From positions 448,001 to 512,000 of the forward strand of contig CAVYGN010000001.1 of NCBI GenBank assembly GCA_963768055.1: DNA of 64,000 nt. The letters are read 5' to 3'. Positions 26,432-50,558 of this stretch are shown here, piece after piece; the stretch's first letter is position 1; each line of letters opens with the position of its first letter. A program made the position numbers and the translations under genes. The notes under the pieces are model-generated. The model was given only the letters and a program-made list of their open reading frames with translations, did no database searches and was not told where the DNA came from. The stretch comes from an uncultured Spirochaetota bacterium (GTDB taxonomy: Bacteria > Spirochaetota > Brevinematia > Brevinematales > JAOACQ01).

Positions 26432-26438
26432 GCTGTCA

Positions 26439-26505: not shown

Positions 26506-26531
26506 ATCGGTCCGGCAAAACAAGAGGAATT

Positions 26532-27758: not shown

Positions 27759-27770
27759 GAGAGGTTTTGA

Positions 27771-28994: not shown

Positions 28995-28997
28995 CCG

Positions 28998-29333
28998 GAA
29001 CCACAGATTACACTGATTACACAGATACTATAGATGGCACAAGTAATGATTTCGGAAATATCTGTGAAATCATTTTATAATTTTAAATTGGATATTATGT
29101 TTATTGTATCTTGAAAAATATCTTTGCGGGATTATTATGATAGTTAAAACTTTTCCTTGAATAAACTAAATGGTATTATTTTTATCTCCATTCAAAAAAT
29201 CATCTCTATGGCACTTTGCGGTGAATCCCAAACCCTGTTATAATTTTATACTGATTTCACAGAAAATCTGCATATCATATATTACCTTTCAGTACCTCCC
29301 TTGCAGGTCTTAATCTGTGAAATCTGTGTTTTC
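28998..29333. mobile_element. CCACAGAT-family inverted-repeat element (copy 4), non-coding interior, inside the ABC operon
   Basis: GAACCACAGATTACACTGATTACACAGAT..TCTGTGAAATCA [AT-rich] TGATTTCACAGA..TAATCTGTGAAATCTGTGTTTTC. Confidence 0.55.
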
Positions 29334-29350
29334 GAACTAGAGGTTTAATT

Positions 29351-30393: not shown

Positions 30394-31119
30394 ATGGGAA
30401 AAAAAATTGCATTGATTACAGGTGCAAGCCGCGGGATAGGTTCTTGTATTGCCCTGAAATTAGCTGAAGACGGATATTCTATATGGGCTAATTATAAGAA
30501 TAATCATTCCGCCGCAAACGAGCTGAAGAAAAAAGTCGAGGCGACCGGCATGGATTGCATCCTTCTGCCTTTCGATGTGTCTTCCGGTGCGGAAACGGAT
30601 AAATGTCTTCAACCCCTGCTGGAAAAGGAAGTTCCGGATGTATTGGTCAATAATGCGGGGTTTACGAGAGATTCCCTTCTGGTCTGGATGAAGGACGAGG
30701 ATTGGCAGGACGTGATAGATGTAACTCTTAAAGGTTATTTTAATGTTACGAGAAAAGTCATATTTCACATGCTTCAGAAACGGGAAGGGATTATTGTCAA
30801 TATATCCTCAACCGCCGGACAAAGCGGATTGCCCGGGCAGGGTAATTATTCGGCGGCAAAAGCGGGGATTATCGGCGCCAGCAAATCTTTGGCCCTGGAA
30901 GTGGCAGGCCGCGGCATCAGGGTTAATGTGGTAGCTCCTGGTTTCATTAAAACGGAGATGACTGAAAAACTGCCTGTAGATGAAATAATCAAAAGAGTGC
31001 CCATGAAAAGAATGGGCGATCCGGAAGAAGTGGCCTCGGTTGTTTCTTTTTTGTGCTCGCCGGGCGCATCATATATCACAGGGCAGGTTATCTCGGTAAA
31101 CGGCGGAATTTATGTATAG
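30394..31119 (+). CDS. fabG: 3-oxoacyl-ACP reductase (ApeQ-like)
   Basis: [27 protein letters not shown]. Confidence 0.92.
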
Positions 31120-32326
31120 AGTGGCAATTGTCGGAATGGGTATCGTCTCGTCCCTTGGTTCCGATTATCAAACTGTAACCGATTCGCTACTCCGGGGTGT
31201 TTCCGGAATTATAATAGATCCGGAGAGGATCGAGCTTGGCTTTAGAAGCCCGCTTACCGGGAAGATCAAAGGATTTATCAGGCCGGATTTAAAGAATAAG
31301 CAGCTCAGGACACTTACCGAGGAAGCTCTGCAATCATACTCTTCTGCAATTCAGGCGATCGCTCAGGCGGGATGGAAAGATGAAGATATTATCAATCCCC
31401 AAACCGGATTGATACTGGGAAACGACAGCACGACGATCCCGATAACAGAATCGATAGAGATAACGAAAAACGAAAAAAGGACCCTTTCCATCGGGGCTAC
31501 TCGCGTTTTCATGTCCCTGAATTCGCATGTTACAATGAATTTAAACGCTCTTTTGCAGACACAGGGGGCGAGCTGGACAATCAGCGGCGCCTGCGCCAGC
31601 GGCGGGCATTCTATAGGCCAGTCTGCGGATCTTATAGCAAACGGCAGGCAGGAGAGGATACTTTGCGGCGGTGTCCAGGAGATAAATTGGCAGTCCGTAT
31701 GCAGTTTTGACGCTACGGAAGCATTTTCAATCAGGGTGGACGATCCTTCGGGAGCATCCCGGCCTTTTGATAAAGACAGGGACGGTTTGGTGCCCAGCGG
31801 AGGTTCGGCTATTGTAGCCCTTGAAAGGTTCGACCTTGCCGAGAAAAGAGGGGCGAATATACTTGGTGAAATTTTAGGGTATTCGTTTTCTTCAGACGGG
31901 TATAAATTATCCGTTCCTTCCGGTATCGGGTTGGAACGCTGTATAAAAGACGTTATTTCCCGTTCGGCGGTTAGAGCCGGAGATATCGATTATATTTCTG
32001 CGCATGCCACATCCACCTTAATAGGAGATATTAAAGAAGCCGAGGCTATACATAACGTGTTCGGACAGGATATGCCCTGGATATCATCAATTAAATCGAT
32101 AGCCGGGCATGAGATGTGGATGGCCGGCGCTTCGCAGGTAATATATTGCCTTCTCATGTCTATCGGGGGTTTCATAGCGGCGAATATAAACTTCAGGGAA
32201 CAGGAAGGGGGAACTCCTCAATTAAAAATAGCGGCTGAAACAATTGATCTGAAGCCTGAGATTATGTTGTTGAATTCGGCAGGATTTGGGGGAACGAATT
32301 GCTGTTTGATGATCAAAGCTTTTTAA
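31112..32326 (+). CDS. Beta-ketoacyl-ACP synthase (FabB-like), KS1
   Basis: GACASG Cys, SAHATST, KSIAGH, GFGGTN. Confidence 0.92.
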
Positions 32327-33747
32327 ATAAATACGATGTTATAGTGATCGGAGCGGGCATCGGAGGCTTAACTTCAGCATTAATCTTAGCGAAAGAAGGT
32401 AAAAAAGTCGCCGTATTCGAGAGAGACTCCGATATCGCTCCCTTAATAAGGCCTTATAAAAAAAAGGGTTGTGAATTCAGTCCCGGCCTGCATATCAGCG
32501 GCTGGATGGGAGACGGAGAAGCGATATCTTCTTTCCTGAAATTCTTGAATGTTTCGGACGGCGTTGAAAAACAATTAAATGAAAACGGCTATGGCGACAT
32601 TGTCGTCGGCCGGAACAAATATCATTTTCCGAGAGGATTTGAAAAAGTCGAGAATGCGTTTTTATCCTATTTTCCCGATTGCGCCGAAGCCGTTCATAAT
32701 TATATACGGTTGGTTAAAGAAGTGAACGAGCAGTCATTCTATTTCAATCATTCGCTGATCCCGGGGAAAAACGATAATTACAGCGGTTTTGCCGAGACGG
32801 CTAATTATACCCTTAAAGATTGCCTTATACATTATAACGCTTCCCCGGAATTGATCGATATGCTCGGTTTGTTGAGTTATATTCTCATCGGAAGTAAAGC
32901 GGATGAAGTACCTTTTGTTATGCATGCATTTGTGCTGGGCGGATTATACAAGTCGCCGGGTTTCTTTACTATCAATGGAATAAATAAATTATTATCGAAT
33001 TATAAGAGGGAATTTGAAAGGCTGGGCGTCGATCTCTTCACCAAAACGGAAATAGCCGAGATAAAAGTAGGAAGTGATAGAAATGTCACGGGTGTAATAA
33101 CGGATTCGGGAGCGGAGTATTTTTCTTCTACAGTAGTCGCTTCTTTTAATCCCAAGCTGTTAAAAGATAAAATCGACACAAGCGCTTTCCGCCAGATCTT
33201 TATCCGGCGGCTGGAAGAGGCGGAAAATACCATAGGCTTGTATGTCGCATTTTTTAAGATTGAAAATAATAAAGACTTTGAGAATTTTGTCTGTTACGAT
33301 AAAGACCTGGATGTCGTAGTCGGCACGACTAAAAATCATTCGGGTGAAAAAAATGAGCAGACGATTTTCAGCGTCTTTATGGCATCCGACGACAGGATCG
33401 CTCCTGCCGGAGCCGATGAGAAAAAGGTCCTGGCCGAAGAGAAATTCTCCTTGATGGAAAAGGTATTATTCAATATGATTCCCGGTTTGAAAGGCAAAGC
33501 CGTGCTATTGGATTATTTAAAACCCTGGTCGTTCGAACGTTATACCAAAACAGTCAACGGATCGGCATACGGTTTAAAGCAAACACTGAACTCGATAGGG
33601 TTCCAGCATAAAGTTCCTATCAGGGGATTGTATTTAGCAGGCCAGGCGATCTATCCGGGTTTCCTTGGATCCATGATTTCAGCGTTCAGCCTGGCTTTCG
33701 TGTTATGCGAAACCGGTGAATTCTGGTCAAAGGTAAAGAATCAATGA
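32299..33747 (+). CDS. Phytoene desaturase/retinol saturase family FAD oxidoreductase
   Basis: GAGIGG dinucleotide motif, FERYT..NGSAYG, GLYLAGQ. Confidence 0.85.
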   Translation: MLFDDQSFLNKYDVIVIGAGIGGLTSALILAKEGKKVAVFERDSDIAPLIRPYKKKGCEFSPGLHISGWMGDGEAISSFLKFLNVSDGVEKQLNENGYGDIVVGRNKYHFPRGFEKVENAFLSYFPDCAEAVHNYIRLVKEVNEQSFYFNHSLIPGKNDNYSGFAETANYTLKDCLIHYNASPELIDMLGLLSYILIGSKADEVPFVMHAFVLGGLYKSPGFFTINGINKLLSNYKREFERLGVDLFTKTEIAEIKVGSDRNVTGVITDSGAEYFSSTVVASFNPKLLKDKIDTSAFRQIFIRRLEEAENTIGLYVAFFKIENNKDFENFVCYDKDLDVVVGTTKNHSGEKNEQTIFSVFMASDDRIAPAGADEKKVLAEEKFSLMEKVLFNMIPGLKGKAVLLDYLKPWSFERYTKTVNGSAYGLKQTLNSIGFQHKVPIRGLYLAGQAIYPGFLGSMISAFSLAFVLCETGEFWSKVKNQ

Positions 33748-35003
33748 AGGAAAATAGGGTTGTAATAACAGGGATCGGCGCCGTTTCTCCCTTCGGAAAC
33801 GGGGTTTCCGTCCTCTCTGAAGGGATTTTTTCAAACCGTTCGGGTATTGTCAATATAGGCGCCGAGTGGAAAGAAAGTATATCCGATATGCTATGCGAAG
33901 TCGGCGGCGTCATTAAAGAAGATTTAAAAGAAAAGCGAATTCCCCGCGATTTACGCAGGAATATGGGGAGAACCTCAATCCTTGCCTGTTTATCCTCGGA
34001 AGAAGCTGCCGGAATGGCAGGACTGACTGAAGAACATTTCATGTCGGGCGATTACGGGGTAGCTTTTTCCTCGACAACAGGGAGCAGCAAATCGATTTAT
34101 GATTTTGCCTATAGATTAAAACAGGAAAAGAGCCTTTCCTCCATTAAATCAGGGCAATTTTTCCAGATCATGTCCCACACCACCGCCGCAAATATCGCTT
34201 GTTATTTTAATGTTAAAGGAAGGGTTATTTCGCCCTGCAGCGCATGTTCATCGGCTGCGCAGTCGATCGGGCTGGCATATGAAGCTGTAAAGTACGGCCT
34301 GCAGAAAGGCATGGTTTGCGGCGGAGCGGAAGAACTTCACGTAACTACAAGCGCGACCTTTGATTTGCTCCAGGCGGCTTCTTTTCATTATAACGATAAA
34401 CCCGACGAGACTCCGAAACCCTTCGATAGGGACAGGGACGGCACTGTTTGCGGAGAGGGCGGCGGCGCACTCATTCTTGAAAGCGAAGAGAGCGCAAAAA
34501 AGAGAGGGGCAAAAATTCTCGGGGAGATCGCGGGTTTCTGCACTTTTTCAAGCGGGGAACATATGACCCGCGTGATAGAAAAAGATCTTATTGCAGGAAT
34601 CGAGAGGCTTATAGCCGAATCGGGGATCAAACTTTCTGAAGTCGACTATATAAACGCCCATGGCACGGGAACTATTCTTGGCGACAGCGAGGAATCGAAA
34701 GCCCTGGAAACTGTTTTTAATTCAAAGGGATATAATCCATATGTGAGCAGTCTAAAGGGGCATATTGGACATACTTTGGGGGCAAGCGGCGCTCTTGAAT
34801 TAATTGTCTGTCTCCTGATGATTGAAAAAGGGCGTCTTGTACCCACTAAAAATTTGAAAAACCCCGATGAGAATTGCGGGAAAATAAATTATTTAAGAGA
34901 GTTCATAGACTTCAAACCTAATTTGATAATGAAAGACAGTTTCGCTTTCGGGGGAATAAATTCCATAATAATGTTGAGGAGTTATGATAATGGAAACAAA
35001 TGA
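33744..35003 (+). CDS. Beta-ketoacyl-ACP synthase (FabF/ApeR-like), KS2
   Basis: SACSS, NAHGTGT, KGHIGHTLGA, FAFGGIN. Confidence 0.92.
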   Translation: MKENRVVITGIGAVSPFGNGVSVLSEGIFSNRSGIVNIGAEWKESISDMLCEVGGVIKEDLKEKRIPRDLRRNMGRTSILACLSSEEAAGMAGLTEEHFMSGDYGVAFSSTTGSSKSIYDFAYRLKQEKSLSSIKSGQFFQIMSHTTAANIACYFNVKGRVISPCSACSSAAQSIGLAYEAVKYGLQKGMVCGGAEELHVTTSATFDLLQAASFHYNDKPDETPKPFDRDRDGTVCGEGGGALILESEESAKKRGAKILGEIAGFCTFSSGEHMTRVIEKDLIAGIERLIAESGIKLSEVDYINAHGTGTILGDSEESKALETVFNSKGYNPYVSSLKGHIGHTLGASGALELIVCLLMIEKGRLVPTKNLKNPDENCGKINYLREFIDFKPNLIMKDSFAFGGINSIIMLRSYDNGNK

Positions 35004-35244
35004 GATTTTTGAGAAAGTAAAAAATGTTTTTGTTGATGAATTTGAAATTGACGGGAAATTGATAACCAGGGAATCTTTGATTTTTGACGAACTGGGATTG
35101 GACAGCCTGGATAGCGTGGATTTGATAGTAGCACTTGAAAAGGCGTTTAATTTTAAAATAGACAGGGCTAACGACGGTCCGGTCATCAATCAGATCAGAA
35201 GTATTCAGGACATTCTGAATTATATAGAAACCAAAAGATCATAA
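34984..35244 (+). CDS. Acyl carrier protein (ApeF-like)
   Basis: LGLDSLDSVDL phosphopantetheine motif. Confidence 0.93.
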   Translation: MIMETNEIFEKVKNVFVDEFEIDGKLITRESLIFDELGLDSLDSVDLIVALEKAFNFKIDRANDGPVINQIRSIQDILNYIETKRS

Positions 35245-35276
35245 TTAAGGCGGCAAACCAGGTTCCGAGGCGATCT

Positions 35277-36584
35277 ATGAATAAAATGCTATGGCAATCC
35301 GATTTTGATTTTCAATATGAAAGCAGGGAGAAATCCGACCTGCTGCAGGAGAATCATTTGATCGAGCATGTGAATTACTGCTTGAAGGAAAGCCCATTCT
35401 ATAATAAACGATTCATGAATTCTATCGGAGAAATTTCGTCTATAAAGGATTTTTCAAAAATCGGCTTCACTTATAAAGGTGATTTATTGAAATATAATTA
35501 TGAATTCTTAGCGGTTAAAGAAGCCGATATTGTCGATACCTGTTTTACTTCGGCGACGGAAGGCACCACTCCCGTTAATTTTCTTTTGACTAAAAATGAT
35601 CTTGACCGTTTGGCATATAATGAGCAAATAGCTTTTCAGATAGCCGGGGTCGGAAGAGAGGATAAAATGGCTGTCTGCGTAGCCCTTGAACGGGGATTCA
35701 TGGCGGGCCTGGCTTATTTTCTGGGCGGGGTCAGGTTAGGCACCCATATGATCAGGGTCGGTTCGTCGGGTTCTCAGCATATCTGGAACATCATTAAAAC
35801 GCAATACCCGACAGTGCTGATAGGAGTACCTTCCGTTCTGGCTAACGTCGCGATTTACGCCATCGATGAGGGCGAGGATCCGGCAGCCTTAAAAGTGAAA
35901 AGGATCCTTGCTATCGGAGAACCTGTAAGGGATAAAGATTTAAAACTCCTTCCCTCGGGAAGGCGCATCGAACAATTATGGAACACGCCACTGTATTCAA
36001 CCTATGCCTCAACGGAAATGTCGACCTCTTTCTGTGAATGCAGCGAGAGACAGGGCGGACATTTTCGGCCGGAACTAATTTATATCGAGCTTGTCGATGA
36101 CGATGGAAACAGGACGGCCGACGGGGAAATCGGGGAAGTGGTCGTTACTCCTTTAGGCGTTCAGGGGATGCCCTTAATGAGATTCAAAACCGGGGATATA
36201 TCATATATCATCAGTGAAAACTGCTCCTGCGGCAGGACTACACGGAGAATTGCCCCGGTTCTGGGCAGAAAATCGCAGATGCTGAAATACAAAGGCACGG
36301 TCGTTTTTCCTAATTCTATTGTTTCTATTGTCGAAGCGAACCCGGATTTTTCGGGGTGTTATGTAGAGGCTTATTCGGCGGAATTCGGGGAAGACCGTGT
36401 AGTAGCTGTTATTTCGCCCGCCGATAATAATTACGACCTTGAAAAACTTAAAGAACAATTCAGGGCCGGGCTTAGGGTAGTACCGGAGCTGAAAATTACA
36501 GGCAAAGACGAACTATTAAAAAAAACACAGCCATCCGGGAAAAGGAAAAGACAAATATATTTTGATATGAGAAAGGAAGAATAA
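35277..36584 (+). CDS. Phenylacetate-CoA ligase family (aryl-CoA/ACP ligase)
   Basis: TYASTE, GEVVVT, PLMRFKTGD, CSCGRT, KGTVVFP. Confidence 0.88.
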   Translation: MNKMLWQSDFDFQYESREKSDLLQENHLIEHVNYCLKESPFYNKRFMNSIGEISSIKDFSKIGFTYKGDLLKYNYEFLAVKEADIVDTCFTSATEGTTPVNFLLTKNDLDRLAYNEQIAFQIAGVGREDKMAVCVALERGFMAGLAYFLGGVRLGTHMIRVGSSGSQHIWNIIKTQYPTVLIGVPSVLANVAIYAIDEGEDPAALKVKRILAIGEPVRDKDLKLLPSGRRIEQLWNTPLYSTYASTEMSTSFCECSERQGGHFRPELIYIELVDDDGNRTADGEIGEVVVTPLGVQGMPLMRFKTGDISYIISENCSCGRTTRRIAPVLGRKSQMLKYKGTVVFPNSIVSIVEANPDFSGCYVEAYSAEFGEDRVVAVISPADNNYDLEKLKEQFRAGLRVVPELKITGKDELLKKTQPSGKRKRQIYFDMRKEE

Positions 36585-36585
36585 T

Positions 36586-38178
36586 ATGGACGAGCGGTAT
36601 CAAACTGTTGTTCTTGACGGCAGCAATCTTACGATAGACGATATTGTAGCTATCGGATCGGGCGAAAAACTTGTCGCTTTGAATAAAAGCTCGCTGGAGA
36701 AATGCAGGGCAAGCTGGGAATTTCTGCTTAAAAAAATTAAAGAGGGAAACATTATTTACGGTGTAAATACTTCATTCGGTTCAATGTGCAATAAAATTAT
36801 ACATGAAGATTCTATCGAGCTTCTTCAGGAAAATCTTATCAAAAGCCATGCAGCAGGGTTGGGGGAACCTATAGATCATACCATCGCCATGGCCGCTGTT
36901 GCCGTAAGGCTTAACTCTTTAATCAAGGGTTATTCAGGCGTCCGCGTGGAATTATTGGATTTTATGACCGAGTTGATAAATCATCGAATTGCCCCATATA
37001 TTCCTTCGAGGGGAAGCGTCGGCGCTTCCGGAGATTTAATCCATCTTGCCCACCTGGCTTTAATGATAATCGGGGAGGGGCGGGTTTTCTATAAAGGTCA
37101 ATTAATGGAGGCGGAAGAAGCTTACAGGCTGGCAAATTTAAAGCCTTTTAAACTTGGTTTAAAAGAGGGTATAGCCCTTATAAACGGGACGTCTGTAATG
37201 ACGGCAATTGCCGCATTCGCTGTTTATCAGGCAAAGCAGGCTTTGGCGGTTGAATGCATCGCCGCCGCTTTTTCAATTGAAATATTCAACAGTATCAGCG
37301 ATTTCCTGGATGAAACTCTTCATAATCTTAAGCCTCATCGCGGACAGATAAAGATAGCCCGGATCTTAAGGGAACTGGTCGCAGGATCGAAGAATGTCGT
37401 CAACAGATCCGATCTTCATGAGATTATCAGGGAAGAGTCCAAAGACGGTTCCTGTGTTTTTGAAACCAGCATATTTATCCAGAATGTTTATTCCATAAGA
37501 TGCACTCCGCAGGTCCTGGCCCCGGTTTATGAGGCGGTGGAAACAGCTGAAAATATTGTCGTTCTGGAAGCCAATTCAACAAATGACAATCCGATACTGA
37601 TTCCCGAAGAAAATAAGATCCTCCATGGGGGGAATTTTCATGGCCAGAGCATCGGGTTTTATATGGACAGCCTGGCCATCGCCCTCTCTACAATGTCGAA
37701 TATCTCTGAAAGAAGGCTGAATACATTATTGGACAGCAAGTTAAACGGAGAGCTGCCCGAGTACCTGATCAGCGGAATAAGGGGGCTCGATATGGGATTT
37801 ATGGGAGCGCAGTATCTTGCAACTTCCACTACCGCTGAAAACCGGCAGTTGTCCAATCCGGTCAGCACAAATAACATTTCATGCAATTCATCCAACCAGG
37901 ACGTGGTAAGCATGGGAACGGTAGCTGCGCGTAAAGTGTATACCCAGGTCTGCAATCTGAAGTATATCCTTACCCTTGAAATATTAGCCGATCTGCAGGC
38001 ATTGTCCTTTAAAGATCCTTCTAAAATGGGTAAAGGGATAACCGAATATTATAAAAAACTATCCCCTCATTTTACAGTTTACGACGGCAAGATTGTTTTT
38101 CATAATTTGCTGACGGAATTCCTGGAACTGATATTCGAGAAAGACATACTCAGCCATAGGGATATCTTTAAAATATAA
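36586..38178 (+). CDS. Aromatic amino acid ammonia-lyase (MIO), probably tyrosine ammonia-lyase type
   Basis: YGVNTSFG, GASGDL MIO triad, HGGNFHG, NQDVVSMG. Confidence 0.9.
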   Translation: MDERYQTVVLDGSNLTIDDIVAIGSGEKLVALNKSSLEKCRASWEFLLKKIKEGNIIYGVNTSFGSMCNKIIHEDSIELLQENLIKSHAAGLGEPIDHTIAMAAVAVRLNSLIKGYSGVRVELLDFMTELINHRIAPYIPSRGSVGASGDLIHLAHLALMIIGEGRVFYKGQLMEAEEAYRLANLKPFKLGLKEGIALINGTSVMTAIAAFAVYQAKQALAVECIAAAFSIEIFNSISDFLDETLHNLKPHRGQIKIARILRELVAGSKNVVNRSDLHEIIREESKDGSCVFETSIFIQNVYSIRCTPQVLAPVYEAVETAENIVVLEANSTNDNPILIPEENKILHGGNFHGQSIGFYMDSLAIALSTMSNISERRLNTLLDSKLNGELPEYLISGIRGLDMGFMGAQYLATSTTAENRQLSNPVSTNNISCNSSNQDVVSMGTVAARKVYTQVCNLKYILTLEILADLQALSFKDPSKMGKGITEYYKKLSPHFTVYDGKIVFHNLLTEFLELIFEKDILSHRDIFKI

Positions 38179-38188
38179 GGGGAATTTT

Positions 38189-39082
38189 ATGATGAGCCTG
38201 CCATGCCCGATCCGTGATTTGATACCCCAGAAAGGAAAAATGGGTTTCGATGAAAACCTTATAAAAGTGGAATCGAAAAACGGCGAGGGATCGGCCCTTA
38301 TCAAAGAGGATAATATTTTTTTAAATTTTAATAAAGAATTATCAAATATTGCCCTCATAGAGTTTGTCAATCAGCTTGCCGCGGCTGTCCAGGGATACAA
38401 TGAAAAATCAAATAATAAAAAGCCCGTAAAAGGTTTATTCGTAGGCGTTCAGGAGGCTGAATTTTTCCAAACTGTTAAATCAGGCGATTTACTTACTTTA
38501 ACAGGGTCTGTAACTGAAGAAGTCGCCCAGGTAACCTTTTTAGAGGGTATTATAGAGAGGGACGGGGAAAGAATCACCCGTCTTATAACAAAATTATATG
38601 AAGTCAGCGGCTTATCCGAGTTTGAATCATTGATGAGCCGGGAGCGTCACGAACTGGAAAAGAAGGTTGTTTTATTAAATAAAAATGAGCCGCCTGCCTG
38701 TCTTTCCTCGGACATGCGCAGAAAACTTTATTCCTATATGCAGGGAACGGAAATTGGAAACGATTATATTTCTTTTAAGATTTCCTGCCCGGAGGATTTT
38801 GAGGCGTTTGACGGGCATTTTCCGGGAAACCCCCTATTGCCCGGAATTATGCTCCTGGAGATCGGCAATTTAGCGCTGGAAATCTTTATAAACAGCCCTT
38901 TTGTTATAAATTATATTAAAAAAATGAAAATTGCCGGTATTGTCTTTCCCGGCCAGGCGGTTTCCTGCAATATTAAGATCGACTCGAGAGATGAGTCTAA
39001 ACTTGCATTTTCCGCCTTATTAAAGGGGGAGGACGGCAGGGAGATCTCCCATTATTCCGGATTCGGTAAGGTTTATGGCTAA
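38189..39082 (+). CDS. Double hotdog 3-hydroxyacyl-ACP dehydratase (ApeP-like plus ApeI/FabZ-like fusion)
   Basis: N-domain LIPQ..M..IEFVNQ; C-domain FDGHFPGNPLLPG. Confidence 0.8.
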   Translation: MMSLPCPIRDLIPQKGKMGFDENLIKVESKNGEGSALIKEDNIFLNFNKELSNIALIEFVNQLAAAVQGYNEKSNNKKPVKGLFVGVQEAEFFQTVKSGDLLTLTGSVTEEVAQVTFLEGIIERDGERITRLITKLYEVSGLSEFESLMSRERHELEKKVVLLNKNEPPACLSSDMRRKLYSYMQGTEIGNDYISFKISCPEDFEAFDGHFPGNPLLPGIMLLEIGNLALEIFINSPFVINYIKKMKIAGIVFPGQAVSCNIKIDSRDESKLAFSALLKGEDGREISHYSGFGKVYG

Positions 39083-39542
39083 TAGAAGAAATGATAATTA
39101 TTTTTCAGCCGATGAAAAACCCCCCCTTGTTGCAGAATGCCTTCGAAGAGTTCAATTTGACGAAGTGGACTCGCTAAGGATTGTCTGGCATGGAAGATAT
39201 ATCAGTTATTTCGAGCAGGGTCGGAACGAATGGGGCCGGAAATTCGGATTCACCTATAACGATATGGCGGAGAACGGTTTTGCTATGCCTGTTGTAAAGA
39301 TTTATGTCGATTATTTCTATCCCCTTTTATACGACGAATTGTTCAGGATCAGGACAAGCTGCCACTGGACGGAAGCTTCAAAAATGAATATGAGTTACGA
39401 GATTTTTTCGGAAAAAGGCATTCTTGCCGTTAAGGGATATACCGTTCAGCTTTACACGGATTTTACCGGTAAACCCTTGATTTTGAAACCGGATTTTGCT
39501 GAAAGATTTATTCAGAAATGGGATGATTGGCGTTTGAAATGA
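39075..39542 (+). CDS. Acyl-CoA thioesterase (4HBT family, ApeK-like)
   Basis: FDEVDSLRIVWHGRYISYFEQGR. Confidence 0.9.
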   Translation: MANRRNDNYFSADEKPPLVAECLRRVQFDEVDSLRIVWHGRYISYFEQGRNEWGRKFGFTYNDMAENGFAMPVVKIYVDYFYPLLYDELFRIRTSCHWTEASKMNMSYEIFSEKGILAVKGYTVQLYTDFTGKPLILKPDFAERFIQKWDDWRLK

Positions 39543-40633
39543 AGAGAGATGTATTTTTAAATCATTCTGCAGTAATAACCGGCCTGGGGACTCTGGATAG
39601 CACCTGGAAATCGATTCTTGATAATCGATCCGGTATTGTAAAAAAAGATCATTTTAATAATTCTTTGCTGGGAAAAACAGGCTTATCTTTATTTAATAGA
39701 GATTTATCCGGATTTACTCAAAATTTTACCCGGTTTTTGATGGATGAATGCCTGGCGGGCTTTCCCGATTTACCCGAAGATACTTTTATTATATGGACGG
39801 GAATTAAAAATAATGCCGAAAGCATTGAAAATCAATATAATAAGGCCGAAATGCCGCTATATTCTTCCGAGTACGATTTGCGCTGCTGGCTAAGCGGCAA
39901 ATTAGGTTTAAAAAAGGGCGGCATGGAAATAAATGCCGCATGCGCCTCTTCCACGGTTGGAGCGGGCCTCGCAGTTCAATTTATTAAAGACGGTAAGTAC
40001 GATCATATTCTGGTAGCGGGAGCAGATATCGTCAGCCGGTTTGTTTTCTTCGGTTTCGCCGCTTTAAAAGCAATGAGCGAAGACGTCTGTAAGCCATTTG
40101 ATGTGAATAGAAAAGGATTAACGCTGGGTGACGGTGCGGCCGCATTATTTTTTTCGGCGGAAAGGCAATCGGATATATGTTTATCCGGATACTGCATTAC
40201 AAACGACGCCAATCATATTACCGGCCCTTCAAGGGACGGCGCCGGATTGGAAAAAGCCTTGCGCGGCGCTCTGGAAATGTCATGCATGGAGCCTGAAGAT
40301 GTTCAGGCGTTTTGCGCTCATGGGACCGGGACTCAATATAACGATGCAATGGAATTATCAGCCGCAAAGTCATTATTCGGGGATGACATTCCTCCGGTTT
40401 TCGGCGTAAAGGGAGCGATAGGCCACACTCTTGGAGCGGCGGGGGGGATCGAGATCGCTCTATGCGGGAGATGCCTGTCGGAAGGGATATTGCCTCCTAC
40501 CGTAGGGTGTGCAAAGCCCGAGATTTCCAATGTTGTAATGGAAAAAACCGGTTTTCAGGGAAAGAACATACTGACCAGCAACTCGGGTTTCGGCGGGATC
40601 AACGCAGCCGTTATAATGGAAAATATGTCATGA
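39539..40633 (+). CDS. Beta-ketoacyl synthase, KS3
   Basis: AACASS, AHGTGT, KGAIGHTLGA, GFGGIN. Confidence 0.9.
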   Translation: MKRDVFLNHSAVITGLGTLDSTWKSILDNRSGIVKKDHFNNSLLGKTGLSLFNRDLSGFTQNFTRFLMDECLAGFPDLPEDTFIIWTGIKNNAESIENQYNKAEMPLYSSEYDLRCWLSGKLGLKKGGMEINAACASSTVGAGLAVQFIKDGKYDHILVAGADIVSRFVFFGFAALKAMSEDVCKPFDVNRKGLTLGDGAAALFFSAERQSDICLSGYCITNDANHITGPSRDGAGLEKALRGALEMSCMEPEDVQAFCAHGTGTQYNDAMELSAAKSLFGDDIPPVFGVKGAIGHTLGAAGGIEIALCGRCLSEGILPPTVGCAKPEISNVVMEKTGFQGKNILTSNSGFGGINAAVIMENMS

Positions 40634-41298
40634 ATAACGGTAAAAAAATTTATGTGCTGGGCAGCGGCTGGATTTCTTCCTCCGGATACGGTTTGTTCGG
40701 TTCTAAGCCTGTTTTTTCCTACGATTCAGCGGATTTAAAATATCCCGAATTACAGGATTACCTGGCTGAATTGCCGTCCAGATACGGCCGTTTCGATGTT
40801 TATACGAGAACTTGTTTTTCCGCAGCTGTCCTCGCCTTAAATGACGCGGGCCTGCTTCATACAGGAAAGAAGGAGAATACCGGTATTATTGTGGGAAGCC
40901 GGTCAGGGGTTTATGATAACGATATATCTTTTTTTGAGTCTACACTGGAAGAAAAAGGATCATTTTCAAGCCCCAATCTCTTTTCATATACGCTTCCTAA
41001 TGTCGCTCTGGGGGAAATTGCAGTATTTTTTAACTTTACCGGTCCCTCTTTCTGCGTCGGGAATGATCCGGCCCATCCGGGCAGGGATGTTCTTCAATCA
41101 TCGCTTTGTTTACTTGGAACAGGCAGAAACAGAAAAATATTAATCGGATGGGCTGAAACGGCAAAGAGAATTAAAAACGAAGAAAGATTTTATAAAGGGG
41201 CGGCTTTTGCCGTTTTATCTACAGAAAAAACCGATCGCTTAAAAGAAGAACTTGAATTTGAAAATAACATAAACTTTTTAGAATTATTCGGGTGTTAA
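40630..41298 (+). CDS. Chain-length-factor-like KS N-terminal domain protein, CLF-A
   Basis: RYGRFD, SPNLFSYTLPN; no ACxS catalytic motif; ATGA overlap with KS3. Confidence 0.8.
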   Translation: MNNGKKIYVLGSGWISSSGYGLFGSKPVFSYDSADLKYPELQDYLAELPSRYGRFDVYTRTCFSAAVLALNDAGLLHTGKKENTGIIVGSRSGVYDNDISFFESTLEEKGSFSSPNLFSYTLPNVALGEIAVFFNFTGPSFCVGNDPAHPGRDVLQSSLCLLGTGRNRKILIGWAETAKRIKNEERFYKGAAFAVLSTEKTDRLKEELEFENNINFLELFGC

Positions 41299-41301
41299 AT
41301 T

Positions 41302-42645
41302 ATGGCTAAATTACTGGTGATATCCGCTAACCTGATGGATGATCCTTATCCTGTATATCCCCTCGGGGCTAACCTGGTCGCAAATTCCGTTAAGAAATCA
41401 GGCCATGAAGTTAAAATTCTGGACTTATTAGTGGACGGCGATAACTGCATGGATGGCGTTATATCGGAATTCAAACCCGACTATATCGCTTTAGCTATGC
41501 GAAATGTCGATAATGTTAATTTTAAAGAAACACATACATTTATACTCCAGTATAAATCGGTTATTTCCAGGATAAAAAACAGTACCGGCGTTCCAATAAT
41601 ATTGGGAGGGACCGCTTTTACTATTTTTCCGGATAAATTTATTGAATATCTGGGAGCCGATTACGGCATCACCGGACCCGGAGAGATCAGCCTTCCGAAG
41701 CTTATCGAGGACCTGGAGCATAAAAATCAGCCTGATAGCCGGGTTATCCGGGGCAAGACCGACTATTCGGGGGAAAACTGCTATTATCTTGGCCGGGAGA
41801 ACAGGCTGGCTGAATTCTACCTGAATCAGGGAGGGATGCTTAATATTAGTTCGAAAAGAGGCTGTCCCCATAAATGTTTATACTGTTCCTATCCTAACCT
41901 GGAGGGTAATAAATATATTTTTCGCCAGCCGGAAAGCGTTGTCGATGAAATCGATTATTTAATGGCCGAGCATGCGGCGGATTATATATTTTTTACAGAT
42001 TCGGTGTTCAACGACAAAGACAATCAGTATTTATTAATCATGGAAGAAATGGCCCGGCGCGGGATATCTATTTTATGGACTTGCTACATGAGGCCTGCAA
42101 AATTTCAAAATGAAGAAGTGGAACTAATGAAGAGGACCGGCCTGCATTCCGTAGAATGGGGGACTGACTGTTCAAGCGACCGCACTCTCGCCGGAATGAA
42201 GAAGAATTTTCGCTGGGATGAAGTACAATCGGCAAATAATCTTTTTGCAAAACATAATATTCCAGGCTCGCATTTTATTATTTTCGGCGGTCCGGGCGAA
42301 AATCAGGAAACCGTTCGCGAAGGGATAAAGAATTTATCGGAGCTTGATTTCTGCGTTGTTTTTGGAGGGACAGGGGTCCGGGTTTTTCCGGATACGGGCA
42401 TAAGCAAACTGGCGAAAAGCGAGGGGCTGATCGTTAGTGATAATGAATTGTTTGAAAAAGAGGTGTTTTATCATTCCCCTGAAATCGATATCGAATGGCT
42501 TAACAATTTTCTTTTAGAAGCTTTCTCCGGGAAGAGGCATTGGATTTATCCCTGGACGGATCAGGCGATCAGAAATCAATATATGCATAACTCGGGCATC
42601 AGAGGCCCTTTATGGGAAAACCTTCTGAAAAAGAAGACAAGATGA
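41302..42645 (+). CDS. Lipid-biosynthesis B12-binding/radical SAM protein
   Basis: PYPVYPLG, RNVDNV, KRGCPHKCLYC.YP.LEG, FFTDSVFN, FGGPGE. Confidence 0.9.
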   Translation: MAKLLVISANLMDDPYPVYPLGANLVANSVKKSGHEVKILDLLVDGDNCMDGVISEFKPDYIALAMRNVDNVNFKETHTFILQYKSVISRIKNSTGVPIILGGTAFTIFPDKFIEYLGADYGITGPGEISLPKLIEDLEHKNQPDSRVIRGKTDYSGENCYYLGRENRLAEFYLNQGGMLNISSKRGCPHKCLYCSYPNLEGNKYIFRQPESVVDEIDYLMAEHAADYIFFTDSVFNDKDNQYLLIMEEMARRGISILWTCYMRPAKFQNEEVELMKRTGLHSVEWGTDCSSDRTLAGMKKNFRWDEVQSANNLFAKHNIPGSHFIIFGGPGENQETVREGIKNLSELDFCVVFGGTGVRVFPDTGISKLAKSEGLIVSDNELFEKEVFYHSPEIDIEWLNNFLLEAFSGKRHWIYPWTDQAIRNQYMHNSGIRGPLWENLLKKKTR

Positions 42646-43553
42646 ACCCTGAAAAAAATGCAAAAAAAAACATAACAGGGAGTTACGGCAGCAAACTTGG
42701 TTATTCGATTTTCGAATTTATTTTAAAGTACCTGGGCCTGAACCTGGCTTACGGGATTCTTATTTTTCTGATTCCCTATTATGTGATCCTGAGGCCCGGC
42801 GTTTACATGCGGTCTAAGCCGTATCTCCTGCGGCGTTTTCCGCATGATTCGTTTTTAAGGCGGTATCTCCGCCTGTTCAAGTATATTTTTATCTTCGGGC
42901 AGACACTCATCGACCAGTTTTATTTCGGTATAGTCGGCGAGTCGAAAATAAGGCTGGATTTTGACCGTCAGGATGAACTGCTGGATATTATGGAAAAAAG
43001 GCCCATGATTTTTATCATGTCCCATCTCGGGTTCTGGGAAGTGTCCATGGCCGGATCTTCACGATTTAATAAGATAATGAATGTTATGGCCGACAAAGAT
43101 ATCGATAAGGACAAAAGGAAGAGCTATTACGATATCCATCATAAAAAGGGTTTATTCCGTTTTATTAATGTGACCGGGAATTACGGGGGTATGATAGAAG
43201 CTACAAACGCATTGCTGAGGGGAGAGGTCGTTGGAGTTATGGGCGACAGGGCCTTTCAATGGCGTTCAAAGAAGGTTAACTTTCTCGGTTCTCCGGCTAA
43301 ATTTCCCATTATCGCGGAGCAGCTGGCTATAGCCACGGGAGCTTCACTGATCGTGATCTTAACTTCAAAAAAAAGGAAAAATCATATCGTTTATAAATGG
43401 AAGGATATTTCGACTGATATATTATCAAATGAAAAACTTGATAAAGAAGAAAAAATACAAAGGATGCTGGAACTTTACGTTAAGGAATTGGAAAAACATG
43501 TCCATGACAATCCCTATCTATGGTTTAATTTCTTTGATTTTTGGGGGCAGTAA
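42642..43553 (+). CDS. Lipid A biosynthesis-type acyltransferase (LPLAT)
   Basis: SHLGFWE, MGDR, FLG..A.FP, PYLWFNFFDFW. Confidence 0.88.
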   Translation: MNPEKNAKKNITGSYGSKLGYSIFEFILKYLGLNLAYGILIFLIPYYVILRPGVYMRSKPYLLRRFPHDSFLRRYLRLFKYIFIFGQTLIDQFYFGIVGESKIRLDFDRQDELLDIMEKRPMIFIMSHLGFWEVSMAGSSRFNKIMNVMADKDIDKDKRKSYYDIHHKKGLFRFINVTGNYGGMIEATNALLRGEVVGVMGDRAFQWRSKKVNFLGSPAKFPIIAEQLAIATGASLIVILTSKKRKNHIVYKWKDISTDILSNEKLDKEEKIQRMLELYVKELEKHVHDNPYLWFNFFDFWGQ

Positions 43554-43604
43554 TCTTATTATATAAGGCATCATAAACTATAACTTATTACGGGAGAATT
43601 ATAA

Positions 43605-43859
43605 ATGAACACAGCTGATAAACTCAAAGAACTTCTATGCAAAGAATTAAATCTGAAAATGAAACCTGAGGACATAACTGACGATATGCCCTTATTCGGT
43701 GAAGGATTGGGTCTGGATTCTTTAGATGCCGTGGAAATTGTGGTGATCCTTAAAAAACACATGGGAGTGGTTATTACCGATACCGAACAGGCCCAGAAGG
43801 TTTTTGTTTCCATTAAGACTTTAACCGATTTTATCGACCAAGAATTAGGCAAAAAATAA
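43605..43859 (+). CDS. Acyl carrier protein (ApeE-like)
   Basis: PLFGEGLGLDSLDAVE. Confidence 0.93.
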   Translation: MNTADKLKELLCKELNLKMKPEDITDDMPLFGEGLGLDSLDAVEIVVILKKHMGVVITDTEQAQKVFVSIKTLTDFIDQELGKK

Positions 43860-45035
43860 GTGCGGAACCGAAGCGTTGTTACCGGCATAGGGTGTATCGG
43901 CAGCTCCGGCAGGAATTTGCATGAATTTATGAAGCTCCTTTATTCCGGCAAACGAAACCCGAAACCCCCACGGCGGTTTTCTTATAAATTGGACAAACAA
44001 TATCCGATCTTTGAAGTATTGGATTTTGAAAACCAGCCGAATGGGATAAGTTATTATTTTGCTGAAACTGCAATTCATGAAGCGATTTCAGAAGCCGGAT
44101 TAGATGAAAAATCATTGCAAAAATACAGGGTCGGAGTGGTTTTAGGTTCGACCGCCGGATGTTTTTTATTTAAAGAGGGTTACTACAGGGATTTTCGCAA
44201 TCAAATAAATTTCGACAAATCGTTTTTAGCCGGGTTATTATTAAACGGGAGTATCGCCCATCAAATAAGCAGAAAATTCAACCTGAGCGGCCCTTCCATT
44301 ACATTGTCGAACGCCTGTTCATCCGGTACCGACGCCATAGGGCTCGCCTCTAAAATGATCGAAAGCGGTGTTTGCGATATTGCCCTGGCCGGCGGAGCCG
44401 ATGAAATAGTCAGAATGGTTTATCTCGGTTTTATTTCCCTGATGAATACATCCGACGAGCCCTGCACCCCGTTTTCAATAAAAAGAAAGGGGCTGAATCT
44501 TGGCGAGGGCGCAGGCATATGCGTTCTGGAAAGTCAAGCCGCGGCAAAAGAAAGAGGGGCAAAACCGCTGGGTTCCATCGAGGGTTATTCTACAGTATCG
44601 GATTCATATCATATTACCGCTCCTGAACCGTCCGGAAGGGGGCTCCGAAAGGCGTTTGAAAACGCGTTGGGCCAGGCCGGCGTCAAACCTGAAGATATAG
44701 CTTTTATAAATACTCATGGGACCGGAACGGTAGATAACGACAGGGTCGAAGGGCAGGTAATTTCAGATATTTTCGGCCCGGATATTCCTATTACAGCTAC
44801 AAAGGCTTATACAGGGCACGCCTTGGGGGCGGCCGGAGCCCTTGAAACCGTTTTTTCAATAAGGTCCCTTATAGATAAAAAAATACCGGGAGCTCCTGAT
44901 TATAACGATTTTGATCCGGACTGCAGGGTAAAACCCCATACGGATAATAAAGAAATTTCCGGTAATTACGCATGCTCCTCTTCTCTGGCTTTCGGGGGGG
45001 TGAACTCGGTGATTGTTATTAAGGGTAATGTATGA
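43860..45035 (+). CDS. Beta-ketoacyl synthase (ApeO-like), KS4
   Basis: NACSSG, THGTGT..ND, KAYTGHALGA, AFGGVN. Confidence 0.9.
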   Translation: MRNRSVVTGIGCIGSSGRNLHEFMKLLYSGKRNPKPPRRFSYKLDKQYPIFEVLDFENQPNGISYYFAETAIHEAISEAGLDEKSLQKYRVGVVLGSTAGCFLFKEGYYRDFRNQINFDKSFLAGLLLNGSIAHQISRKFNLSGPSITLSNACSSGTDAIGLASKMIESGVCDIALAGGADEIVRMVYLGFISLMNTSDEPCTPFSIKRKGLNLGEGAGICVLESQAAAKERGAKPLGSIEGYSTVSDSYHITAPEPSGRGLRKAFENALGQAGVKPEDIAFINTHGTGTVDNDRVEGQVISDIFGPDIPITATKAYTGHALGAAGALETVFSIRSLIDKKIPGAPDYNDFDPDCRVKPHTDNKEISGNYACSSSLAFGGVNSVIVIKGNV

Positions 45036-46003
45036 ATATTTCCATAGCGGGATTGGGAATTGTCTCAAAAATAGGCGGGACCCGGGAAATAGAGCAATAT
45101 CTCGCTCTTGAAGAAATCAATACTGTTTTATTACATAACGGCAGGCTTTTACCTGTCGTTTTTCCCGACGATTACGGAGTACCCGAGAAACTGACAAGGA
45201 GAATGAGCCATTTTGCCAAACTTGCACTGCTTTCCGCTTATCATGCTATAAGAGATTCAGGGCTTAATGTCGCAGGAAAGTCAATCGGCATTATTCAGGG
45301 TTCGGTTTACGGGCCTGTTATTTCAGGAATAAAGGCTTTTGACGATTTGATAGATTTCGGCGATAACCAGCTTTCCCCGGTTAATTTTTCAGGATCGGTA
45401 TTCAATACCTCGACATCCTATATTTCTCTCGCGTTAGGCATCCGCGGCTGCACTTTATCGCATACCGGAGGCCAGGATACCCTTTATAATTCCCTTCTTA
45501 CCGCCGGACTGTGGCTTGAAGGCGGAGCTGCGGATTATGTTATTATGGGAATCGGGGACGAGTACTTATCCTTTATTGAGAATCCCGATCCCTGCGGTGA
45601 TAAACCGGGACTTCTGCCTACATCGGAGGGCTGGACGACATTTATCTTAAGCAAGAATGAAAAGGATAAGTACGGTAAAATCGAATACGGTTTATTGAGA
45701 GAGTTGCCCCCGGGAACTGAAAATCAAAAGAATATCTTTTCAGTCTGGAATGATCAAATAAAAACGGATGTTATTCCGTATGATAACAGGTTTTGTTTTC
45801 TTAATTTTTTACGGGGTTCATACCCTAGCGCTTCAGCGTTCGATTTAGCTCTCGCCTTAATCTGCAGTAAAAACAAAAGATTCCCTGTTAATAATTCTTC
45901 AAATTATAATATCATATCATTAGATAAAAATGAGAAGATAAGCTGTTATAATCCGGCTGAAACCGGCGGAATATTTTATTATGACGTTTATTCGGGATGT
46001 TAA
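45032..46003 (+). CDS. Chain length factor (ApeC-like), CLF-B
   Basis: TRRMS, LSPVNFSGSVFN; lacks catalytic Cys motif; ATGA overlap with KS4. Confidence 0.82.
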   Translation: MNISIAGLGIVSKIGGTREIEQYLALEEINTVLLHNGRLLPVVFPDDYGVPEKLTRRMSHFAKLALLSAYHAIRDSGLNVAGKSIGIIQGSVYGPVISGIKAFDDLIDFGDNQLSPVNFSGSVFNTSTSYISLALGIRGCTLSHTGGQDTLYNSLLTAGLWLEGGAADYVIMGIGDEYLSFIENPDPCGDKPGLLPTSEGWTTFILSKNEKDKYGKIEYGLLRELPPGTENQKNIFSVWNDQIKTDVIPYDNRFCFLNFLRGSYPSASAFDLALALICSKNKRFPVNNSSNYNIISLDKNEKISCYNPAETGGIFYYDVYSGC

Positions 46004-50498: not shown

Positions 50499-50558
50499 GG
50501 GCGGGCTGTCCGCTGTTTTTGAAGAGAAATATCTGTGCGACCTCCGGAGGATAAACAA

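Follow-up and report, generated by a model that had tools for sequence, protein, structure and literature searches.

The 64,000-nt stretch of DNA analysed here (the window), from a spirochaete lineage (Brevinematales), carries a type II polyketide synthase (PKS) operon at positions 30394–46003 that includes the gene for a cobalamin (B12)-binding radical S-adenosylmethionine (SAM) enzyme of the family TIGR04072. We propose, with a probability of roughly 0.55, that this operon is the core of an envelope-lipid island of about 34 kb and works like the aryl polyene (APE) pathway of ape clusters, adapted to an anaerobe. The product would probably be a tyrosine-derived, polyene-type outer-membrane lipid modified by B12 radical enzymes. 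Gene identities, active-site states and conservation were observed directly, and the chemical steps are proposed from them. The core operon occupies 15.6 kb and comprises 16 open reading frames (ORFs), which form an array on the + strand without interruption from 30352/30394 to 46003:

30394–31119, + strand: ketoreductase (KR), a FabG/FlxB-like short-chain dehydrogenase/reductase (SDR); FlxB 309.9 bits (cut-off 340), FabG models
31112–32326, + strand: ketosynthase KS1, FabB-like, Cys-His-His; PRK07967 336 bits
32299–33747, + strand: CrtD/phytoene-desaturase-like flavin adenine dinucleotide (FAD) oxidoreductase; Pfam, NCBIfam
33744–35003, + strand: KS2, an active ketosynthase by its residues (Cys-His-His); PRK09116 382.8 bits
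34984–35244, + strand: acyl carrier protein ACP1; PF00550
35277–36584, + strand: aryl-acid adenylating ligase of the FlxY/PaaK type; FlxY 443.3 bits (cut-off 520)
36586–38178, + strand: aromatic amino acid ammonia-lyase of the 4-methylideneimidazole-5-one (MIO) type, probably for tyrosine; PF00221 537 bits
38189–39082, + strand: dehydratase (DH) of 297 aa with a FabZ-like hot-dog fold in its C-terminal half
39075–39542, + strand: 4HBT/YbgC-type thioesterase (TE), counterpart of ApeK; TIGR00051 83.5 bits (cut-off 68.7)
39527–40633, + strand: KS3, active by its residues, with a divergent N-terminal part; best PDB sequence match 9s5h_B, 140 bits
40630–41298, + strand: CLF3, a truncated ketosynthase-like partner (chain-length-factor type) lacking the catalytic Cys, from the alignment
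41302–42645, + strand: TIGR04072 B12-binding radical SAM enzyme
42612–43553, + strand: LPLAT, a lipid A-type acyltransferase, counterpart of ApeD; PF03279, 34-nt overlap with the radical SAM gene
43605–43859, + strand: ACP2; PF00550, PRK09184 66.1 bits
43860–45035, + strand: KS4, an active ketosynthase by its residues; Pfam, NCBIfam, alignment
45032–46003, + strand: CLF4, chain-length-factor-like, with Gln at the Cys position; PF13723

The roles of all 16 ORFs are backed by Pfam and NCBIfam and match the APE/flexirubin-like type II PKS inventory given in a preliminary description of this DNA. Nine of the 15 junctions overlap, one is a zero-gap abutment and the remaining gaps measure 1, 3, 10, 32 and 51 nt, which bears out the 'largely overlapping' arrangement claimed there. 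The KR start at 30394 proved to be a true ATG, and the CLF3 start is corrected to 40630, in an ATGA overlap with KS3, instead of 40462. The TIGR04072 enzyme and the TE are the only operon proteins that score above a specific curated cut-off. Rfam and tRNA scans of the window gave no match. Predicted promoter-like sites numbered 58 (41.4 expected) and terminator-like sites 19 (17.5 expected); the AT-rich gap of 281 nt upstream of 30394 holds promoter-like hexamers and gives no evidence for a separate transcript.

The preliminary description took the 15.6-kb operon for the complete unit. A TIGR04072 gene that passes the cut-off is present in five further genomes of the host's family, and 60 window proteins were mapped onto their matching regions. 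The series KR-KS1-CrtD-KS2-ACP1-ligase-lyase-DH-TE-KS3-CLF3-TIGR04072 is collinear in all five (40–90% identity), and a glycosyltransferase family 2 (GT2) homologue stands at the cluster end in each. The block at 16034–30112 is linked to the core in four of the five, being inverted in one of the five (G007); in G005 it was seen only in parts within the 40 kb fetched. Since most of the region 16034–50018 is thus kept in the related genomes, the conserved unit extends, as judged by synteny, over approximately 34 kb. Genes flanking it on the outside (a response regulator at 15655 and a sensor at 8117) are syntenic in G001 and G003. Only these same two keep the LPLAT-ACP2-KS4-CLF4 module collinear; in G004, G005 and G007 it is inverted, divergent (25–59% identity) and led by an extra B12-radical-SAM-like ORF (L094–L096, L100–L103). 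Two forms of one module within a single bacterial family look like module replacement. The remainder of the island comprises the following:

16034–17497, + strand: BchE/HpnJ-like enzyme at the head of the upstream block, the second of the B12-binding radical SAM type; HpnJ 178 bits and BchE 157 bits, both below cut-off
17515–18363, 18376–19515 and 19543–20451, + strand: three secreted/outer-membrane ORFs with no Pfam or NCBIfam match
20729–21403, + strand: class I SAM methyltransferase, functional counterpart of ApeB/Kuste3347; Pfam Methyltransf_23/25/11 and Ubie_methyltran, NCBIfam BioC/UbiE-like
21363–21734, + strand: small conserved membrane protein with two helices
21731–22528, + strand: polysaccharide (GlcNAc-type) deacetylase, NodB/PgdA-like, 116 bits
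22494–23252, + strand: PlsC-type acyltransferase; PF01553 69.9 bits
23243–23998, + strand: alpha/beta hydrolase with a signal sequence, kept in G001, G003, G004 and G005
24234–26431, + strand: three P13-porin-like membrane proteins, a variable part of the island; PF05628 27.8, 23.1 and 25.8 bits (cut-off 25)
26532–28994, + strand: two LolC/E-type (MacB_PCD + FtsX) permeases
29351–30112, + strand: LolA_like periplasmic lipid carrier, counterpart of ApeL; PF17131 111.8 bits
46000–47760, − strand: alpha/beta-hydrolase fused to a radical SAM/SPASM domain, accessory
47763–48971, − strand: glycosyltransferase of the GT1 family, accessory
49236–50018, + strand: GT2, counterpart of ApeJ without the DUF2062 domain; PF00535 94.8 bits

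The second B12 radical SAM gene is cluster-linked and 70–85% identical in all five related genomes, and homologues of 41–49% identity adjoin TIGR04072 in other phyla. The three family-less ORFs, kept in four of the five relatives, have an N-terminal hydrophobic segment (the first two) or an aromatic C-terminus (the last two), and the atlas offers leads only, DUF3108-like and Omp85-like. The permeases adjoin the LolA-like gene in four of the five at 60–85% identity, and the P13-porin-like ORFs are present in G004 and G007 only. The two minus-strand genes recur in G003 and in five loci titled 'Bacillota'.

Within the lineage, TIGR04072 scores above the cut-off in six of the 41 genomes searched; all six are among the 12 of the window's own family, and none of the 29 from other families of the order or class has it. 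The host had been called a probable spirochaete, which is supported at order level, and three P13-porin-like ORFs lie in the island. Beyond the lineage, a scan with the single radical SAM protein found no relative, and an alignment-based scan retrieved 572, the best 80 loci of which were kept. Forty-eight of these have at least 8 kb of sequence upstream and at least 6 kb downstream (full-flank loci), and homologues of window genes were counted in their flanks: GT2 39, LPLAT 39, KS4 35, CLF3 35, ACP2 34, the second B12 radical SAM type 33, KS2 28, ACP1 28, DH 28, PlsC 27 (3′ of ACP1 in 27/48), ligase 26, KS3 21, KR 21, CrtD 20, CLF4 20, TE 18, lyase 13 and KS1 11. More than four of these 18 cluster gene types occur in 41 loci, and four or fewer in seven. 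By record title, the carriers belong to Calditrichota, Cloacimonadota, Planctomycetota (Phycisphaerae), Sumerlaeota, Lentisphaerota, Nitrospirota and Spirochaetales and include many Desulfobulbales. The gene set that they share includes the CrtD-like enzyme, the FabB-like KS, the ligase, two or three radical SAM genes, GT2 and LPLAT. The whole set is therefore a conserved family spread over many anaerobic phyla, and not, as first suggested, an APE operon with one acquired 'ladderane-type' enzyme.

Two loci of this family are informative about its nature, L061 from Desulfotalea sp. and L050 from Phycisphaerales. Their radical SAM proteins score 593.6 and 570.0 bits, respectively, on TIGR04072, and their homologues of the CrtD-like enzyme match PF01593. 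By Pfam, L061 contains an ApeP-like DH, LolA, MMPL and GT2-DUF2062, and L050 contains LolA, DUF3261 and GT2-DUF2062. These components of homologous clusters (ApeP-like DH, LolA, MMPL, DUF3261 and GT2-DUF2062) are among those described for ape clusters (PMC8253772), which speaks for the ape-like reading. An unfused radical SAM/SPASM gene lies 3′ of the ligase in L061.

An alignment of the six KS-like proteins shows that KS1–KS4 retain Cys-His-His. At the Cys position, Asp-Pro stands in CLF3 and Gln in CLF4; the C-terminal domain is missing from CLF3 and the His pair from CLF4. PDB entry 9s5h is also the second-best sequence match of CLF3; it might conceivably be the FabF heterodimer of anammox bacteria, for which the preprint on that protein states no PDB code. 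By these residues the cluster is predicted to encode four working ketosynthases and two chain-length-factor-like partners, each directly 3′ of its KS. The conserved cluster holds no enoyl reductase, and KR is the sole SDR between 16034 and 50018. The combination typical of ape, KS with a dead CLF and KR with DH in the absence of an enoyl reductase, is thus found in the cluster, and the 'partly reduced' product of the preliminary description finds no enzyme in it.

The evidence for an aryl starter comes from the ligase and the lyase, which are separated from their neighbours by 1 nt and 32 nt and are adjacent inside the operon in the window and in all five related genomes. The best family of the ligase by a wide margin is the aryl-acid ligase FlxY, the next family scoring 155.7 bits; the ligases of L061 and L025 reach 408 and 472 bits on FlxY. 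The lyase has the ASG triplet of the MIO motif, its nearest solved structure is the tyrosine aminomutase SgTAM (312 bits), and it scores 456.3 bits on hutH (cut-off 539). Five HutH proteins from three genomes that score above the hutH cut-off (612–704 bits) were aligned with seven cluster lyases. QEDHVSM is found in all five HutH and NQD(V/I)VSM in all seven cluster lyases (NQDVVSM in the window), so that Gln replaces the HutH Glu, which we take to bind the imidazole, and Val replaces the HutH His; 18 differences are fixed. The motif is kept in 17/17 cluster lyases of 58–83% identity, and the cluster lyases form a conserved cluster-specific group that is 58–61% identical across phyla. No match to urocanase (hutU) was found in the genome, which is 94.75% complete. 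A HutH function was accordingly rejected on the score below cut-off, the missing signature and the lack of a hutU match. An 'S-H' motif, whose His presumably contacts the phenol in SgTAM, was discarded as a discriminator since it occurs in both HutH and tyrosine enzymes. A chromophore pathway for photoactive yellow protein (PYP), which also uses a lyase and a ligase, was set aside as well: both genes lie inside the PKS operon, and no PAS/PYP match was obtained among the ORFs scanned. The lyase is most likely, from these motifs, a tyrosine ammonia-lyase or at least an aromatic one. Because it lacks the HutH signature, no urocanase was matched and it abuts a FlxY-like ligase, aryl priming appears likely in the window cluster.

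In the proposed pathway, the lyase would convert tyrosine to p-coumarate, which the FlxY/PaaK-type ligase would adenylate and load onto ACP or CoA. The KS3-CLF3 and KS4-CLF4 heterodimers, with the ketoreductase and dehydratase and no enoyl reductase, would then extend it to a conjugated polyene. A second, non-aryl conjugated acyl chain would probably be built on the other ACP, as in the APE lipids of Xenorhabdus. The TIGR04072 and BchE/HpnJ-like B12 radical SAM enzymes are expected to modify the chain, the TIGR04072 reaction most likely being a cobalamin-dependent C-methylation at an sp2 carbon, and the CrtD-like flavoenzyme may shift the double-bond pattern. LPLAT, the PlsC-type acyltransferase, GT2 (with GT1) and the deacetylase could assemble the chains on a glycerol/amino-sugar anchor, and the LolCE-like permeases, the LolA-like carrier and the barrel-like proteins could carry the lipid to the outer membrane.

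Several observations weigh against this reading. In sequence, KS4 matches FabF (205 bits) better than it matches 6qsp, the APE ketosynthase of Xenorhabdus (151 bits). Of the ape export set (LolA-like, RND/MMPL and DUF3261), only the LolA_like carrier was found among the window ORFs scanned, the LolCE-like permeases standing in place of the others; these ORFs include no MMPL, no DUF3261 and no counterpart of the DUF2062 part of ApeJ, and no LolD-type ATPase lies beside the LolC/E-type permeases. The lyase scores alike on HAL (471/524), TAL and aminomutase models (437 and 416), all below cut-off, and may possibly be a 2,3-aminomutase. The flexirubin equivalog of a third protein, FlxA, is below its cut-off (456.9/700 bits), as FlxY (443.3/520) and FlxB (309.9/340) are below theirs. 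Glu273 of TsrM, the nearest structural relative of the TIGR04072 enzyme, is replaced in the family, as described below. Finally, the ligase is present in only 26 and the lyase in only 13 of the 48 full-flank loci, and a FlxY-like ligase is absent from three Phycisphaerae genomes, whose highest genome-wide scores on the FlxY family are 100, 82 and 75 bits.

The last of these points also bears on an alternative proposed in 2009 for Desulfotalea and Kuenenia, namely an anaerobic pathway to polyunsaturated fatty acids or hydrocarbons without an aryl group. On this view, a plain polyunsaturated chain would be made and modified by the KS set together with the CrtD-like desaturase and the radical SAM enzymes; the role of the ligase would be to activate a fatty acid for its attachment to glycerol, and the lyase would have no connection with the pathway. 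Polyunsaturated hydrocarbons are described from D. psychrophila by Rattray et al. (PMC2649909), who proposed the pathway, and Phycisphaerae clusters keep the core without ligase, lyase and thioesterase; in the Phycisphaerales locus L050, PlsC is directly followed by DH and all three genes are absent. Such a pathway would leave unexplained the adjacent lyase and FlxY-like ligase inside the operon in the window and in all five related genomes, the wide lead of the aryl-acid ligase family, the cluster-specific group to which the lyase belongs in place of HutH, and the scaffold genes of ape type, and we consider it unlikely for the window. What the ligase-less clusters do indicate, by keeping the core, is that the core of the family needs no aryl starter; TIGR04072, the second B12 radical SAM enzyme, the CrtD-like enzyme and the KS/CLF pairs would therefore constitute a core that works without one. 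By analogy with the APE lipid of Xenorhabdus, the family core may make a non-aryl conjugated chain, to which lineages with the ligase (and the lyase) add an aryl polyene.

The assignment of the product of 41302–42645 to TIGR04072, suggested at the outset, holds at 512.2 bits (cut-off 360) over model positions 1–443 of 443. The protein contains a B12 domain (PF02310, 56.3 bits) and a radical SAM domain (PF04055, 64.5 bits) whose CX3CX2C motif (C188, C192 and C195) is invariant in 21/21 family sequences. In NCBIfam, TIGR04072 is followed by BzaD at 177.6 bits and by the Trp 2-C-methyltransferase family at 151.9 bits. TsrM, the cobalamin-dependent tryptophan C2-methyltransferase (PDB entries 6wte and 6wtf), is both its best sequence match in the PDB (124.8 bits; the next 45.7) and the best fold match (TMq 0.71–0.83 over four chains, E ~1e-23) of an AlphaFold model built from a 21-sequence alignment (pLDDT 83.9, pTM 0.85); MgmA, AprD4, TokK, CysS and OxsB follow at TMq 0.60–0.67. 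Both enzymes share the B12 domain, CX3CX2C and, in a HMMER alignment, the Arg at the position of TsrM Arg69, which presumably lies under the corrin and corresponds to Arg67, invariant in 21/21 family members. They differ in that identity is only ~20–24%, the TIGR04072 enzyme is ~120 residues shorter, and its surroundings are those of lipid synthesis rather than of thiopeptide synthesis. In the same alignment, the position of TsrM Glu273, which we take to be on the unique iron, is occupied by Val235, invariant in the family, and the TsrM mechanism is thus not simply transferable. No longer fused radical SAM form (784–2235 aa) was found at E ≤ 1e-30, and no LPLAT fusion (~750 aa) among the 120 matches listed. 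In L061 (8727–9986) and L050 (8690–9991), a B12-domain protein of 419–433 aa without a radical SAM Pfam match precedes TIGR04072; the window has no such partner, CLF3 being directly followed by TIGR04072.

We tentatively regard the TIGR04072 enzyme as a cobalamin-dependent C-methyltransferase acting, by a polar or radical route, on an sp2 carbon of the conjugated chain, at odds somewhat short of even. Its likeness to TsrM and BzaD had also raised the possibility of an aromatic-ring methylase, which was lowered since clusters lacking the ligase keep the enzyme. As it is kept in cluster versions without an aryl ligase, TIGR04072 probably acts on the chain and not on the ring. A 'radical-modified aryl head' is likewise at odds with the Phycisphaerae, which keep TIGR04072 without an aryl ligase in the cluster or, in three genomes, elsewhere. 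Of the undescribed aryl-headed, radical-modified, partly reduced (glyco)lipid first envisaged, an undescribed and probably aryl-primed glycolipid is supported; the partial reduction and the modified head are not.

A quite different role for this enzyme would be ring formation or C-C coupling, in which B12 radical SAM enzymes cyclize or cross-link the conjugated chain to give ladderane-related or carbocyclic lipids rather than methylating it. To our knowledge, ladderanes are known only from anammox bacteria, and neither BchE nor HpnJ, the families that the second radical SAM enzyme resembles, is a methylase. The set of ACP, FabZ-like DH, KS, inactive KS partner, phytoene-dehydrogenase-like protein and cobalamin radical SAM enzyme equals, by description, that of anammox 'Cluster I' (kustE3603–3608: amxACP, amxFabZ, amxFabF2/amxFabFmut, a PDH-like protein and a cobalamin radical SAM enzyme), which its authors call unique to ladderane producers (bioRxiv 10.64898/2026.05.19.726425). 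The same six component types are found in the window, and its DH-(TE)-KS3-CLF3-radical SAM order resembles the FabZ-FabF2-FabFmut-(PDH)-radical SAM order of 'Cluster I', to which the window adds aryl priming and lipid-anchoring genes. The loss of the TsrM Glu273 ligand position would also fit ring formation. It fits poorly with the nearest characterized relatives of TIGR04072 by score and fold, which are methyltransferases, and with D. psychrophila, a carrier of a syntenic cluster in which, according to Rattray et al. (PMC2649909), no ladderanes were detected. Ring formation is on this balance improbable. We give equally little credence to its broader form, in which TIGR04072 and the BchE/HpnJ-like enzyme as a pair would form C-C bonds in a conjugated polyene acyl chain and the anammox ladderane pathway would be a specialized branch.

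Known systems can be compared with the window cluster. Ape clusters (Escherichia coli CFT073 and Xenorhabdus doucetiae) resemble it in a putative aryl-acid adenylating enzyme, and share with it two ACPs, a KS that has an inactive CLF partner, KR, DH, thioesterase, LPLAT, GT2, a LolA-like carrier and a SAM methyltransferase, and also the proposed logic of anchoring polyene chains on glycerol/amino-sugar for the outer membrane. In the APE lipid of Xenorhabdus, as described, a glycerol-phosphate-GalNAc backbone bears an aryl polyene together with a conjugated 26:5 acyl chain, and its construction uses two ACPs, ApeD and ApeJ (bioRxiv 10.1101/2020.12.19.423268). Of the corresponding anchoring pair, LPLAT is present, and GT2 is present without the DUF2062 part seen in L050 and L061. 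The window exceeds ape clusters by three radical SAM enzymes, the CrtD-like flavoenzyme, the FabB-like KS, the ammonia-lyase, the deacetylase and the PlsC-type acyltransferase, whereas the MMPL/RND, DUF3261 and COG4648 genes of ape are absent from it, its KS proteins match the solved APE ketosynthase no better than they match FabF, and its host is neither a proteobacterium nor a member of Bacteroidota.

The flexirubin (flx) pathway of Bacteroidota resembles the window in supplying the starter of a type II PKS through a tyrosine ammonia-lyase and a PaaK-type ligase, and three window proteins find their highest score among named families on FlxA, FlxY and FlxB. A true flexirubin pathway would esterify the aryl polyene to a dialkylresorcinol. 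As the preliminary description had stated for DarA/DarB and MMPL, no ORF for a β-ketoacyl-ACP synthase III (KAS III; DarB-type), a DarA-type protein or MMPL was found among the window ORFs scanned. With all three equivalogs below cut-off and no resorcinol module in the window, the cluster is not a flexirubin cluster; its radical SAM enzymes set it further apart, its lipid-anchoring and Lol-type genes point to an ape-type lipid, and we see next to no chance of a flexirubin product.

The closest likeness is to a cluster that Rattray et al. (2009; PMC2649909) described as syntenic between D. psychrophila and Kuenenia stuttgartiensis (kuste3335–3352), with genes for radical SAM proteins, a 'phenylacetyl-CoA ligase/F390 synthetase', an oxidoreductase, a glycosyltransferase, a phytoene dehydrogenase, a deacetylase-like protein (Kuste3351) and a methyltransferase. 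All features of this type are present in 16034–50018: radical SAM, phytoene-dehydrogenase-like, PaaK/F390-type ligase, glycosyltransferase, deacetylase-like, SAM methyltransferase and FabB/F paralogues. Common to both are several FabB/F paralogues, some with degenerate active sites, and TIGR04072-type plus further radical SAM genes. L061, whose record is a metagenome bin of a Desulfotalea sp. rather than the type strain of D. psychrophila, has 12 gene types collinear with those of the window, in the one-strand order CrtD-KS2-ACP1-PlsC-ligase-TIGR04072-GT2-LPLAT-ACP2-KS4-KR-DH. The likeness to Kuenenia follows the published description alone, as no anammox locus is among the best 80 of the 572 relatives. 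In contrast to these clusters, the window has an ammonia-lyase, extra barrel-like proteins, a Brevinematales host, LolCE-like permeases instead of MMPL and no B12-like pseudo-partner before TIGR04072, and its proteins are only 21–55% identical to those of Desulfobulbales. By gene content, the window cluster is nevertheless a lyase-bearing Brevinematales member of the orphan 'ladderane-like' family described in 2009, agreeing with it in every feature compared.

Clusters of this family are called 'ladderane' or 'aryl polyene' by genome-mining tools in many anaerobic phyla; a study of 2023 lists 'ladderane' calls from nine phyla outside the anammox bacteria and gives their function as unknown (PMC9902471). 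For the synthesis of ladderanes in anammox bacteria, enzymes of these types are described as the foremost candidates, though unproven. The literature search found no paper naming TIGR04072, none joining ladderane, ammonia-lyase and polyene, and none on such clusters in Brevinematales. To this family the window adds a spirochaete-lineage member, whose built-in tyrosine lyase would provide a simple isotope handle on the product, and the comparative evidence places the B12 radical SAM enzyme in the chain-building core and not at the aryl head. Should the C-C bond reading hold, an unseen class of carbocyclic polyene lipids would exist in many anaerobes, its Brevinematales version being tyrosine-capped and traceable by labelling. 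By record title, the cultured carriers encountered are Desulforhopalus vacuolatus DSM 9700, D. singaporensis DSM 12130 and Desulfurivibrio sp. D14AmB; the chemistry is probably more accessible in such cultured Desulfobulbales than in the window organism.

Some records stand out in the distribution. Nine entitled 'Bacillota bacterium' (L011–L018 and L022) share the cluster at 46–85% identity and nest in the Brevinematales clade of the radical SAM tree with 97–100% local support, and this nesting indicates that the title is probably wrong. A 5.4-kb contig titled 'Promethearchaeota archaeon' (L063) carries TIGR04072-GT2-LPLAT-ACP2, falls among Desulfobulbales in the tree and is most likely a binning error. 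The alphaproteobacterium Terasakiella sp. A23 (L053/L109) has a TIGR04072-type gene of 41% identity in a different context and a lyase that is only 34% identical, with F-H instead of S-H and NQDKVSM; it may represent a distinct variant of the system.

Around the island, the GT2 gene is followed by an ORF (50052–50498) with a CuA/cupredoxin domain and a lipoprotein-like signal sequence, of which G003 has a cluster-adjoining homologue (48%) flanked by its KR and LolA-like genes and G004 another (63%) next to its GT2; the ORF may be a redox partner or a coincidence. Directly downstream (50535–51850) are a PEMT-type methyltransferase and a membrane reductase of the steroid-5-alpha-reductase/TECR family, a family that includes enoyl reductases; neither gene was found near the cluster in the five relatives, and a tie of the reductase to chain reduction is conceivable. 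Genes of sulfur amino acid metabolism stand on both sides of the island (11912–14855 and 52390–53655), namely a Cys/Met pyridoxal-phosphate enzyme, a PALP cysteine-synthase-like gene, an Rrf2 regulator and an O-acetylhomoserine sulfhydrylase, and a tie to the methionine/SAM supply of a radical SAM-rich island is possible. Cyclic-di-GMP genes also surround it (3617–4507, 8117–11809 and 57692–58078), encoding a GGDEF protein, a 1230-aa periplasmic-binding/histidine-kinase/receiver/GGDEF hybrid and a PilZ protein.

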